Shown: positions 58,445 to 63,929 of the stretch, piece by piece
How the letters are laid out: each line of letters starts with the position of its first letter
Position numbering within the stretch: the first letter of the stretch is position 1
Assembly (NCBI GenBank): GCA_041394265.1
Contig: JAWKIO010000005.1
Span: forward strand, 1,575,401 to 1,639,400
Direction of reading: 5' to 3'
Source of the DNA: Acidimicrobiales bacterium
GTDB lineage: Bacteria; Actinomycetota; Acidimicrobiia; Acidimicrobiales; SZUA-35
Length of the DNA: 64,000 nucleotides
Program-made: the position numbers and the translations under genes
The notes under the pieces: model-generated
What the model was told of the DNA's origin: nothing
The model's database searches: none
What the model saw: the letters and a program-made list of their open reading frames with translations, nothing else

Positions 58445-59044
58445 TCAGGCCTCCTTCGCAGCGGTGGTGGGCAGCGTGGCGGTGGTGAAGACCACGTAGT
58501 CGCTCACGAGCACGTCGTAGGTGTTGAGCTGATCGGCGGCGAGCAGGTGCACCTCGGGGAGGTTGCGCATGCTCTTCCAGGCGACCTCGTCGTTGCGGTC
58601 GAGCACGACCAGCGCACGACCGGTGACGCCGAGATCGGCCAGGGCTGCCTTGGCTGCCTTGGTGCTGGGAGCATCGAAGCCCCAGTTGGCAACGACCACG
58701 ACCTTGGACTCGGCTGCGCGGTCCGACAGGGCGGACCGCAGCGCCAGGCGCTTCATCTTCTTGTTGGTGCGCTCGGAGTAGTCACGAGGGCGAGGTCCAT
58801 GGACCGTGCCGCCGCCGATCCAGATCGGTGAGCGGGTCGAGCCGGCGCGGGCACGACCGGTGCCCTTCTGCTTCCACGGCTTGGCGCCGCCACCTCGAAC
58901 CTCGGTTCGAGTCTTCGTCTTGTGCGTGCCGGCGCGCTTGGCGGCGAGCTGGGCATTCACGACCTGGTGCATCACACCGACGTTGGGTTCGACACCGAAG
59001 ATGGCGGGGTCGAGTTCGACGATCGTCTTCTCTACCGACATCAC
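58445..59044 (-). CDS. rplD: 50S ribosomal protein L4
   Basis: 199 aa, ...[19 protein letters not shown]... Confidence 0.96.
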
Positions 59045-59682
59045 GAGCTCACTTTCACCGCGTTGCGGATGATGACCGTGCCGCCGCGAGGTCCGGGAAC
59101 CGCGCCCTTGACGAGAAGCAGGTTCTGCTCGGCGTCGGACTGCACGATCTTGAGGTTCTGGGTGGTGACCCGCTCGTTACCCGAGTGGCCGGCCATCTTC
59201 ATGCCCTTGAACACACGAGATGGCGTGGCGCACTGGCCGATCGAGCCGGGCATGCGGTGCACGAGGTGCGTACCGTGCGTGGCCTTCTGGCCCGAGAAGT
59301 TGTGACGCTTCATGACACCGGTGAAGCCCTTGCCCTTGCTGGTGCCGATGGCGTCGACGACTTCGCCGGCCTCGAAGATCTCGGCGGTCAGTTCCTGACC
59401 GACCTCGAAGCTCGAGATGTCGGCGAGGCGAAGTTCGACCAGCTGGGTGCCGGCGGCGACACCGGCCTTGGCGAAGTGTCCGGCCTCGGGGCGGTTCAAT
59501 TTGTTGGCGTCTTTGTCGCCGACCGTGATCTGCACGGCGTCATACCCGTCGGTGGCGACCGTCTTGATCTGCACCACGCGACACGGGGACACCTTGATCA
59601 CGGTGACCGGGACGATGTTGTTGTTCTCGTCCCACACCTGAGTCATGCCGACTTTTTCGCCGACAATCGCTTTCTTCGTCAT
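59041..59682 (-). CDS. rplC: 50S ribosomal protein L3
   Basis: ORF 59041-59691 trimmed to ATG 59682 ([17 protein letters not shown]). Confidence 0.96.
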
Positions 59683-60043
59683 GCCTTCCACTTCCGTCAG
59701 CGGGCCTGGTTCGGGAGCGATTCCAGGCCGTTCACGTCAACGCTCCGCCAGGCGAAGCCGAGCGGAGCGAGATTTCGATTGTGCCAGCGGGTTTCCCGTG
59801 CTCCGTGGAGGGAGCGACTCGACGAGCGAGGACGCCCCAGGTGGAGCGCTGTGGGACCTGGCCGGACTTCAGTTGCCAAGTGGGGGAACCACTTGGGCCT
59901 GGCAAGGGTATCGAACCAACAACCCGCTTCCACCCTGTCCTCGACAACGTGACGAGCGACATCTGGCCGGACGCAGCGAGACCCGGGCGCTTGGCCCGGG
60001 TCTCGTCGTCAGTCGTGCTGGCCGGTCACTCGACCGGAACCCA
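59683..60043 (-). promoter_or_regulatory. 361-nt structured non-coding spacer / candidate leader of rplC-rplD
   Basis: No credible ORF. Contains several perfect GC-rich hairpins and three mutually exclusive helices 20-90 nt upstream of the rplC ATG (see findings). Confidence 0.5.
59977..60005 (-). terminator. perfect 12-bp hairpin downstream of rpsJ
   Basis: CGAGACCCGGGC-gcttg-GCCCGGGTCTCG, about 40 nt after the rpsJ stop, preceded by the smaller hairpin CCGGTC-actc-GACCGG (60022-60037). No U-tract. Confidence 0.45.
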
Positions 60044-60364
60044 CTACAGCTGCTGGATCTTGATCTCGATGTCGACACCCGCCGGCAGGTCGAGACGCTG
60101 GAGCGAGTCGACGGTCTTGGGGTTCGGCTCGAGGATGTCGATCAGACGCTTGTGGATCCGCATCTCGAAGTGCTCGCGGCTGTCTTTGTCCTTGTGCGGC
60201 GAACGGATGACACAGAACTTGTGCTTCTCAGTGGGCAGCGGGATGGGACCCCGGAACTCGGCGTTGGTACGAGCAACGGTCTCCACGATCTTCTTCGTGG
60301 ACTGATCGATCACCTCGTGGTCATAGGCCTTGAGGCGAATACGGATCTTCTGCTTGGCAGCCAT
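60044..60364 (-). CDS. rpsJ: 30S ribosomal protein S10
   Basis: 106 aa, [20 protein letters not shown]. Host-typical C-ending codons. Confidence 0.97.
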
Positions 60365-60375
60365 GGATGCAATCC

Positions 60376-61563
60376 CTACTTGATGATCTTGGTGACACGC
60401 CCGGCACCAACCGTACGCCCACCCTCACGAATCGCGAACCGCAAACCCTCATCCATCGCGATCGGATTGATCAACTCCACCGTCATCTCCGTGTTATCAC
60501 CCGGCATACACATCTCCGTACCCTCCGGCAACGTCACCGTCCCCGTGATATCCGTCGTACGGAAATAGAACTGCGGCCGATAATTCCCGAAGAACGGCTT
60601 ATGACGACCACCCTCCTCCTTCGACAACACATACACCTGCGCCTCAAAATCAGTATGCGGCGTAATCGAACCAGGCTTCGCCAACACCTGACCCCGCTGC
60701 ACCTGATCCTTCTCAATACCCCTCAACAACGCACCAACATTGTCACCAGCCTGCCCCGAATCCAACAACTTCCGGAACATCTCAACACCAGTACACGTCG
60801 TCTTCTGCGTCGGACGAATACCAACAATCTCGAGCGCATCGCCAACATTCACGACACCCTGCTCGATCTTCCCCGTCACCACCGTCCCACGACCAGTAAT
60901 CGAGAACACATCCTCAATCGGCATCAAGAACGGCTTATCCAAATCACGAGCCGGCTCCGGGATGTACTCATCCACCGCAGCCATCAACTCCATGATCTTG
61001 TCACCAGCAGCCTCGTCACCCTCCAACGCCTTCAACGCCGAAACATGCACCACCGGAACATCATCACCCGGGAACTCGTACTCAGAAAGAAGCTCACGAG
61101 CCTCCAACTCCACCAGCTCCAACAACTCCTCATCATCAACCATGTCAGCCTTGTTCAAAGCCACCACGATCGCAGGCACACCCACCTGACGAGCCAACAA
61201 CACATGCTCACGCGTCTGCGGCATCGGACCATCAGCAGCCGACACCACCAAAATCGCGCCATCCACCTGCGCCGCACCCGTAATCATGTTCTTGATGTAA
61301 TCCGCGTGACCCGGCATATCAACATGCGCGTAATGACGAGAATCCGTCTCATACTCCACATGCGACACATTGATCGTGATACCACGCTCACGCTCTTCAG
61401 GCGCCTTATCAATATTATCGAACGCCGTCGCCGTATTCCCAGCAACCCGATCCGACAACACCTTCGTAATCGCCGCCGTCAACGTCGTCTTCCCATGATC
61501 AATATGACCCATGGTCCCCACATTCACGTGAGGCTTATTACGCTCAAACTTTGCTTTTGCCAT
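60376..61563 (-). CDS. tuf: elongation factor Tu
   Basis: 395 aa, [28 protein letters not shown]... ending [14 protein letters not shown]. Actinobacterial-type protein sequence but anomalous codon usage. Confidence 0.98.
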
Positions 61564-61593: not shown

Positions 61594-63681
61594 TCACTCG
61601 CCCCGGACTCGCTTCACGATTTCTTCTTGCACGTTGCCAGGCGTTGGCTGGTAACTATCGAACTGCATGGTGTAGCTCGCTCGACCCTGGGTCTTCGACC
61701 GCAGATCGTTCACGTAGCCGAACATCTCCGACAGCGGAACCTGGGCGGTGACGACCTTGTTGGTGCCACGGGCTTCCATCTGGCCGACTCGGCCGCGACG
61801 TGAGTTGAGGTCGCCGATCACGTCGCCCATGTAGTCCTCGGGGGTGACGACCTCGACGGCCATGATCGGCTCGAGGAGGATCGGCTGCGCCTTGCGGGCG
61901 GCCTCGCGGAACGCCATGGTGCCGGCGATCTTGAAGGCCATTTCCGAGGAGTCGACGTCGTGGAACTTGCCGTCGAGCAGGGTGACGCGCACGTCGACGG
62001 TCTGGAACCCGGCGAGGACGCCGTTGGTCATGGCCTCCTTGGCCCCGGCATCGACCGAGGGGATGTACTCACGGGGAACACGACCACCCGTGATCTTGTC
62101 GACGAATTCATAGCCACCACCGGGGCCGGTCGGCTCCAGTGCGATCTGCACCTCGGCGTACTGACCGGTACCGCCGGTCTGCTTCTTGTGGGTGTAGGTG
62201 TGGCTGTCGACCGTGCCGTTGATGGTCTCGCGGTAGGCGACCTGCGGCTTGCCGACACTGGCGTCGACCTTGAACTCGCGGAGCATGCGGTCGACCAAGA
62301 TGTCGAGGTGGAGCTCGCCCATGCCGGCGATGATGGTCTGACCGGTCTCTTCGTCGGTACGCACCGTGAAGGTCGGGTCTTCCTCGGCCAGGGCCATGAG
62401 GGCCTTGCCCATCTTCTCCTGGTCGGCCTTGGTCTTGGGCTCCACGGCCACGTGGATCACGGGATCGGGGAACTCGAGGGATTCGAGGATGATGGCGTGC
62501 GCCGGATCGGTGAGGGTGTCACCGGTGCGGACGTTCTTGACGCCGATCGCCGCCATGATGTCGCCGGTCATGGCGAACTCGCGGTCCTCCTGCTTGTTCG
62601 CGTGCATCTCGAGGAGGCGACCCATCCGCTCCTTCGAACCCGTGCGGGTGTTGAGCACCTGGCTGCCCTTCTCGAGCGTGCCGGAGTACACCCGGAAGTA
62701 GGTGAGCTTGCCGACGTTCGGCGCCGTCATGATCTTGAAGGCCAGAGCCGAGAACGGCTCCTTGTCGTCGGGAGCGCGCTCGGCGTCGTCGCCACCCTTG
62801 AGAAGGGTGCCGTGCACCGGTGGGAGATCGAGCGGTGACGGGAGGTAGTGCACCACGGCGTCGAGGAGAGGCTGGACACCCTTGTTCTTGAACGCCGAGC
62901 CGCACAGGATCGGGACGAGGATGTTGTTGATGCAGGCGTGGCGGATGCCGGCGTGCAGCTGCTCGACGGTGAGGTCCTCGTTCTCGAGGTAGGCCTCCAT
63001 CAGTTCCTCGCTGGTCGAGGCGATGGACTCGACCAGCTCGAGACGGTACTCGGCGGCCTTGTCGGCGTAGTCAGCAGGGATGTCGACGACGTCCCAGGTC
63101 GCGCCCAGATCCTCGTTGTGGTACATCAACGCCTTCATCTCGACCAGGTCGATGATGCCGGCGAAGTCGGACTCGATACCGATCGGCAGCTGGAGGATGG
63201 CGATGTCGGGGGTCAGACGTTCCTTGATGGTGTCGACCACGAAGTAGAAGTCGCCACCGGTGCGGTCGAGCTTGTTGACGAAGCACATGCGGGGAACGCC
63301 GTACTTGTCGGCCTGACGCCACACGGTCTCGGACTGTGGCTCCACGCCCGCAACACCGTCGAACACGGCGACGGCGCCGTCGAGGACGCGCAGCGAGCGC
63401 TCGACCTCGACCGTGAAGTCGACGTGGCCGGGGGTGTCGATGATGTTGATGCGGTGATCGTTCCAGAAGCAGGTGGTGGCAGCGGACGTGATGGTGATGC
63501 CACGCTCCTGTTCCTGCTCCATCCAGTCCATGGTCGCGCCACCATCGTGCACTTCACCGATCTTGTAGTTCTTGCCGGTGTAGTAGAGGATGCGCTCGGT
63601 GGTGGTGGTCTTGCCGGCATCGATGTGCGCCATGATGCCGATGTTGCGATATTTGTCGAGTGGTGTCGGTCGCGAAGACAT
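61594..63681 (-). CDS. fusA: elongation factor G
   Basis: ORF 61594-63897 trimmed to ATG 63681 ([26 protein letters not shown]). Confidence 0.97.
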
Positions 63682-63929
63682 GATGTTGGCCTCTTCGGCA
63701 GTGGTGGAGAAGGGGGAGCGTCCGGGGGCGGAGGATCCGTTACGGGCGGTCCGAGCGTTCACCCGGACGGGTGCCGAAGCGACGGATGCCTCGGCTGGTC
63801 GAACAATCGGCGGCGACGGTGTGTCGGCCCCGACGGGCCACTCGAGTCGGAGTGGGCGAGCATCGACCCCGCCCGAACGGCGCGGCGGATGCGACAACGA
63901 ACTGCTGGGTGCAGTCGCCGATAGGGCGA

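Follow-up and report, generated by a model that had tools for sequence, protein, structure and literature searches.

The 361 nt that separate rpsJ from rplC in this member of the Acidimicrobiales appear, on balance, to comprise an operon boundary and, behind it, a regulatory 5' leader, most likely an operator that is bound by a ribosomal protein encoded in the same operon. The secondary structure of the leader is conserved, and its covariation is strong; beyond this, we infer protein binding, the identity of the ligand, and translational repression. The leader is a candidate for a new ribosomal protein leader outside Rfam. In what follows, the window is the whole stretch of 64,000 nt of DNA that was analyzed, and its relevant features are listed in Table 1.

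Table 1. Features in and around the rpsJ-rplC spacer, in window positions
Feature	Positions	Strand	Description
fusA	61594-63897	minus	
tuf	60376-61563	minus	
rpsJ (uS10)	60044-60364	minus	Last gene of the str-type unit; stop TAG at 60044-60046; identified by ORF and translation
rpsJ-rplC spacer	59683-60043	minus	361 nt
T1 hairpin	60022-60037	minus	6 bp, CCGGTC/GACCGG; starts 6 nt past the rpsJ stop
T2 hairpin	59977-60005	minus	Perfect GC-rich stem of 12-13 bp; terminator-like, without a U-tract here
Promoter-like site	59905-59933	minus	-35 GTGGAA at 59928-59933, 17-nt spacer, -10 TACCCT at 59905-59910
P1	59876-59896	minus	8-bp hairpin CCAAGTGG/CCACTTGG at the 5' end of the leader
Leader core	59728-59878	minus	151 nt; match to covariance model R1
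J1/2			CAACUGAAGU; class consensus CAAYYGAMGU
P2	59784-59865	minus	5 bp, CCGGC (59861-59865)/GCUGG (59784-59788); encloses P3
P3	59790-59858	minus	GGUCC ... GG-AA-ACC, with a conserved AA bulge
Conserved single strand	59770-59783	minus	CACAAUCGAAAUCU; class consensus GCACAAYCGA
P4 hairpin	59741-59769	minus	CGCUCCGC (59762-59769; DNA CGCTCCGC)/GCGGAGCG (59741-59748), inner GGC/GCC
Tail	59728-59740	minus	UUGACGUGAACGG; consensus UUSRCGUGA(A)
P5 hairpin	59703-59729	minus	GGCCUGG (59723-59729)/CCAGGCC (59703-59709)
Pre-start region	59683-59702	minus	CGCUGACGG and the purine-rich ribosome-binding region GGAAGUGGAAGG, immediately upstream of the rplC ATG
rplC (uL3)	59041-59682	minus	First gene of its unit; ATG at 59682

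A probable operon boundary after rpsJ

The minus strand carries, in this order, fusA, tuf, rpsJ, the spacer, rplC, rplD, rplW, rplB, rpsS, and rplV, with 11 nt between tuf and rpsJ and with neighboring genes from rplC through rplV either overlapping or separated by at most 10 nt. Forty relatives belonging to the same genus, family, or order were compared, of which 30 loci served for the layout of rpsJ and rplC. The distance from rpsJ to rplC was 200 to 570 nt in 16 of these loci, and in the remaining 14, rplC lay 1.4 to 11.7 kb from rpsJ or on a different contig, with unrelated genes intervening. Most relatives had no more than about 20 nt between tuf and rpsJ, and one had about 285 nt. In most of 30 relatives, strong hairpins comparable to T2 were found no more than about 70 nt behind the rpsJ stop, independent of the next gene; they were plain stems of 10 to 19 bp in most genomes of the same family and less clear in more distant genomes, and several relatives had a short U-run behind the hairpin. 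Because the tuf-rpsJ gap is short in most relatives and a strong hairpin follows rpsJ in them, the grouping of rpsJ with tuf and the str genes is supported, with rplC and its followers forming a separate unit, and the gap is probably an old operon boundary. The first-pass annotation of this DNA had already remarked on the 361-nt spacer and the 11-nt gap and had suggested that rpsJ is wired to the str genes, as the relatives bear out; all of the helices, open reading frames (ORFs), and distances that it listed were found in place when the sequence was rechecked.

The str-type unit, which in the window comprises fusA-tuf-rpsJ, would be transcribed only as far as the hairpins after rpsJ. A scan with a terminator consensus detected no intrinsic terminator on the minus strand, and, since T2 has no U-tract in this genome, termination at this point is something that we infer, and read-through from rpsJ is possible. 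The only Rfam match, to ftsZ-DE (25 bits), covered both of the post-rpsJ hairpins and was dismissed as noise. The comparison of relatives also yielded two observations on the rpsJ side. At least 12 relatives had rpsJ only 58 to 533 nt from a contig start, which means that their assemblies break inside tuf. At one locus (L101 in genome G052, family f32), the 470 nt before the conserved rpsJ core encode a Lys/Ala/Pro-rich repeat (AKAPAKA...), apparently in frame, which suggests a uS10 protein with a long basic N-terminal extension.

The spacer as a whole was predicted to fold more stably than all 100 of its dinucleotide shuffles (z = -3.7), and comparison with relatives shows that selection acts on the greater part of it, which makes the folding more than chance. 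The spacer can be divided into the end of one operon, with its two hairpins, a promoter-like site, and a leader of about 215 nt that reaches up to the rplC start. The first-pass annotation saw no credible ORF in it, and this assessment stands: the two minus-strand ORFs of 76 codons (59732-59962) and 78 codons (59697-59933) had no Pfam match, and their frames are disrupted by indels of 2 nt and 17 nt among relatives of the same genus. The repeated CGCUCC/GGAGCG motif in the spacer is real and corresponds to P4 together with genus-specific P4-like hairpins in the P3 insert.

The promoter-like site recurred as GTGGAA-N17-TAnnnT in 15 family relatives and, in other orders, as TTGGAC or TTGGCG, N17-19, and TAnnnT; in the relatives, it is located about 20 to 80 nt upstream of the conserved leader core. 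From the positions of the -35 and -10 hexamers, transcription would be predicted to start near 59898. Together with the conserved structured leader, the promoter-like site fits the earlier proposal that rplC and the genes downstream of it have a long leader of their own. Close to the predicted 5' end of the transcript, the sequence CCAGGCC at 59896-59902 exactly matches the P5 3' strand and could compete for the P5 5' strand at 59723-59729; it is not kept in the closest relatives.

Structure and covariation of the leader

The first-pass annotation had named an alignment of the spacer across relatives and a covariation analysis as ways of checking its proposal. We aligned 24 diverse sequences, derived a structure by RNAalifold and inspection, and built from this alignment the covariance model R1, which has 110 positions and 18 base pairs. 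For the covariation test, 60 distinct sequences were aligned to R1. At the paired positions, 95.7% of the cells held standard pairs, compared with 83.5% after column shuffles and 35 to 47% when the partners were slid by 1 to 3 columns. Changes on both sides were seen in 14 of the 18 pairs, and none of 500 shuffles matched any of the observed covariation measures. This alignment was fitted to R1 and so favors the structure, and the same compensatory changes were already present in an earlier MAFFT alignment. The G-U pairs were consistent with the rplC strand only. When all column pairs were scanned for long-range pairs or pseudoknots, none were found beyond P2, P3, and P4.

From 5' to 3', the core consists of J1/2 (CAACUGAAGU), P2, P3 with a genus-specific insert, GCACAAUCGA, P4, and UUGACGUGAACGG, and the minimum free energy fold of the 151-nt core alone recovers P2, P3, and P4. 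In the place of P1, the relatives have hairpins with other sequences, as judged by eye only. All five pairs of P2 had changed on both sides among the 60 distinct sequences, with variants such as UCGUG/CACGA, CCACA/UGUGG, and CCUCC/GGAGG. P3 has the class consensus GG-YC ... GR-AA-CC with a variable cap, and C-G to U-A changes were seen at two of its positions. Members of this genus have a 56-nt insert as the cap, and it contains a P4-like hairpin, GCUCC-CUCCAC-GGAGC (59800-59815). The columns of the single strand that follows P2 were nearly invariant in both alignments A1 and A2. P4 was paired in 96.6% of the cells and showed double changes in five of its eight pairs, for example, GCUCUC/GAGAGC in L052.

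Each of the 22 family leaders with the GUGAA..CUGACG flanks contained P5, which was 12 to 82 nt long and was bordered by the invariant GUGAAnGG and CC-CKCUGACG. A K-turn or a loop-E motif in the flanks GUGAA/CUGAC was considered and rejected, since the needed pairings do not fit. The first-pass annotation had described three mutually exclusive helices in this part of the leader. All three exist as sequences, but P4 and P5 can form at the same time and are conserved together, and the helix that would compete with them (59714-59719/59741-59746, GGAGCG/CGCTCC) was not upheld, as CGCTCC occurs in the P5 loop in just 3 of the 22 family relatives.

The 3' end of the 16S rRNA of this genome reads ..CACCUCCUUUCU. 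Seven of eight pairs can form between the CUCCAC loop of the P4-like hairpin at 59800-59815 and GUGGAAGG (59684-59691), which immediately precedes the rplC ATG, and this complementarity could make an anti-RBS contact at the level of the genus. A second copy of CUCCAC is found at 59841-59846.

Distribution of the leader and its link to rplC

A search of the 5.7-Mb genome with R1 returned a single match (89.8 bits, E = 3e-19). Across the Acidimicrobiia, one full match per genome was found in 62 of the 151 genomes sampled, with one genome having an additional partial match at a contig end. In genomes of other Actinomycetota classes (a 151-genome sample of the phylum), R1 found nothing credible; the lone weak match outside the class scored 26.9 bits and had no ribosomal protein gene nearby. 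The motif was located within 200 nt upstream of rplC in 30 of 30 relatives from the same genus, family, and order, and it stayed with rplC even where rpsJ was up to 11.7 kb away or on a different contig. Likewise, rplC was downstream of R1 in all 29 class-level loci. An exact degenerate pattern was scanned over 185,579 species, with one genome each, and gave at least 120 matches. Among the 80 matches listed, rplC was the next gene in 79, and the one exception was cut by a contig end. The labels of these 80 were mostly Acidimicrobiia, Acidimicrobiales, Microthrixaceae, Iamiaceae, and unclassified Actinomycetota or actinobacteria; one was labeled just "bacterium," and three belonged to oddly labeled MAG contigs with an Acidimicrobiia-like uL3. 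These three leader-carrying contigs (L103, L125, and L172, labeled Verrucomicrobiales, Bifidobacteriaceae, and Burkholderiales) encode uL3 proteins that are 55 to 65% identical to that of the window, and they are probably mis-binned or mislabeled.

The distance from the end of the R1 core to the rplC start was 9 to 100 nt in the class-level set. The pattern match, which ends 4 nt before the end of the R1 core, was 13 to 98 nt from the rplC start at the 79 listed loci and no more than 20 nt from it at 16 of them. Many lineages have a purine-rich ribosome-binding site directly adjoining the conserved tail, and in others the two are 40 to 100 nt apart.

In the Acidimicrobiia families that have no leader, rpsJ and rplC were contiguous in all five genomes tested, one from each of five families, and at least one such family instead carries, between tuf and rpsJ, a terminator with a U-tract. 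The leader thus accompanies a move of the operon boundary from the upstream side of rpsJ to its downstream side. No homology was seen between the leader and the tuf-rpsJ spacers of the leader-less families. One of these spacers (L099 in G049, family f27) is 366 nt long and GC rich and has a TATGCT -10-like site; it may be a different, canonical S10-type leader, and it has no similarity to the rplC leader. At another leader-less locus (L098 in G047, family f25), the 330 nt before rplC contain a repeat of the rpsJ end and the rplC start. The repeat unit, GTGGAAGTAGAGATCAAGCTATGACGA plus about 75 nt with a G6/C7 hairpin, is tandemly repeated twice, producing a spacer of about 200 nt in a junction that is otherwise contiguous, and this may represent either the gap at an early stage or an artifact of assembly.

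Proposed function and alternatives

Autoregulation by a ribosomal protein, which the first-pass annotation had raised as one possibility, would be the best reading of the leader. The RNA folds into P1, a P2-P3 stack with the AA bulge, the single strand GCACAAYCGA, P4, and the tail UUSRCGUGA, which in many lineages adjoins the purine-rich ribosome-binding site; in the family of this genome, the P5 clamp hairpin stands between them. A ribosomal protein encoded by the operon and present in excess over free 23S rRNA would bind this fold, the loading of the 30S subunit at rplC would then be blocked, and the repression would be passed along the operon through the tight coupling of the downstream genes. 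A translational operator fits best because no terminator separates the core from rplC, the tail adjoins the ribosome-binding site in many lineages, and the downstream genes are tightly coupled. In the lineages where 40 to 100 nt lie between the core and the start codon, simple occlusion of the ribosome-binding site could not be the whole story.

The ligand candidates are uL4, by precedent, and uL3, by position. Gene order cannot separate the two, since rplD followed rplC in every locus that had both (HSP ends no more than about 220 nt apart). Mimicry of the rRNA site is common in ribosomal protein leaders and is not obligatory. When the leader was compared with the 23S rRNA of its own genome by BLAST-short, local alignment against 200 shuffles, and motif scans, similarity was at chance level, and R1, run with filters off on the rRNA locus (23S and part of 16S), scored at most 5.3 bits. 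A resemblance of AAGUCCGG..CACAAUCGAAA in the leader to 23S H19-H20 (GAAAGUCCGG..ACACGAAAC) was discarded, as 69 of 200 shuffles equaled it; it is further undercut by the P2 strand, which varies freely in relatives. With no similarity to 23S rRNA above chance, the usual argument from rRNA mimicry is absent here; a permuted or purely three-dimensional mimic is possible. A ligand of another type would also be in keeping with how strongly the single-stranded stretches are conserved. We give a small but appreciable chance to a less expected outcome, in which the leader is the first uL3-sensing operator, or a class-specific RNA that controls elongation or expression of the entire S10-spc-alpha string through a ligand new to ribosomal protein control (for example, as a processive antiterminator or a small-molecule sensor), and not an L4 operator of the E. 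coli type.

The alternative helices had been called attenuator-like in the first-pass annotation, and the leader might act on transcription elongation, either as an attenuator of the L4/NusA type or as a processive antitermination RNA for the S10-spc-alpha string. It does head a long and tightly packed string of genes, its P4 and P5 are GC-rich hairpins, and the E. coli S10 leader works partly through attenuation (PMC3616713). However, no terminator was found between the core and rplC, and no hairpin with a U-tract was seen there in any lineage inspected, merely 9 to 20 nt lead from the core to the start codon in many lineages, and the putative alternative helix is not conserved, so that a terminator/antiterminator switch is not borne out and an action on elongation in general seems unlikely. 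The 5'-terminal position of P1 and the compact, GC-rich structure would also be compatible with an element of mRNA stability or processing, such as a protective 5' stem-loop or an RNase site, which would set the ratio of rpsJ to the L3 cluster without any feedback ligand. We regard this as distinctly improbable, given that about 40 nearly invariant unpaired nucleotides, which stabilizer hairpins do not need, are kept across the class.

Riboswitch classes normally govern several metabolic or transport genes, whereas this leader is present as one full copy per genome and solely before rplC. A riboswitch, or a sensor of some nonribosomal factor (a small molecule or an alarmone) that tunes ribosomal protein output, is therefore very doubtful, even though the highly conserved junction nucleotides, the several stems, and the failure to find rRNA mimicry all point in its direction. 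Finally, it is scarcely credible that the gap encodes a separate small RNA or contains a small ORF that is translated. Open frames of 76 to 78 codons do exist, but, besides their lack of a Pfam match and their disruption by indels within the genus, the conservation tracks base pairs and not codons, and there is no terminator ahead of rplC. The unrecognized free-standing small RNA suggested by the first-pass annotation is unlikely, since no terminator lies between the core and rplC and since the core ends 9 to 20 nt before the start codon in other lineages.

Relation to known systems

An rps10 gene linked to str genes, with tufA and rps10 cotranscribed and the L3 cluster separate, occurs in cyanobacteria, in cyanelles and plastids, and in archaea. 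The window resembles these systems in that rpsJ stands right after tuf and is severed from rplC; in contrast to them, the arrangement here originated within a single actinobacterial class, where it is coupled to a structured leader dedicated to rplC. The E. coli S10 operon is controlled by uL4 through its leader (PMC3616713, PMC10931766), and the likeness to this L4-interacting RNA (Zengel and Lindahl; PMC3616713, PMC10931766) consists of the expected feedback by a protein of the operon. However, the E. coli leader precedes rpsJ, has five hairpins (HA to HE) that end in the U-tract terminator HE, uses NusA, and is limited to some Gammaproteobacteria, whereas the Acidimicrobiia leader stands before rplC and lacks a terminator, and no sequence or structure common to the two was detected. 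An "L4" leader candidate has been described ahead of rplC-rplD-rplW-rplB in Archaeoglobi (Eckert and Weinberg 2020, PMC7247131); it is similar in being directly upstream of the same four genes, and its ligand was assigned by precedent alone. That candidate is archaeal, though, and the Rfam 15 models had no match to the window or to four diverse Acidimicrobiia leaders.

The Rfam scan, another check named in the first-pass annotation, returned no relevant family, neither in the window (E ≤ 10) nor in the four diverse Acidimicrobiia leaders (E ≤ 1). Such a leader is also absent from a survey of ribosomal protein leaders (PMC7247131), from a study of the distribution of E. coli leaders (PMC3616713), and from a survey of noncoding RNAs in 50 genomes (PMC11109978). 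A full-text literature search that combined Acidimicrobiia with rplC or leader found nothing.

To our knowledge, feedback control of the largest ribosomal protein operon is understood in a few Gammaproteobacteria only, and we know of no regulator of the rplC-rplD string in Actinomycetota. As an RNA, the leader is clearly delimited (about 110 nt) and its covariation is excellent, and its clear on/off phylogenetic pattern coincides with the shift of the operon boundary. It offers a handle on which ribosomal protein binds and on RNA recognition without obvious rRNA mimicry, as well as on the question of why the junction between rpsJ and rplC became a landing place for accessory genes in Acidimicrobiia. 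It is also a handle for annotating ribosomal loci in Acidimicrobiia MAGs from soil, sludge, sea water, and sponges.
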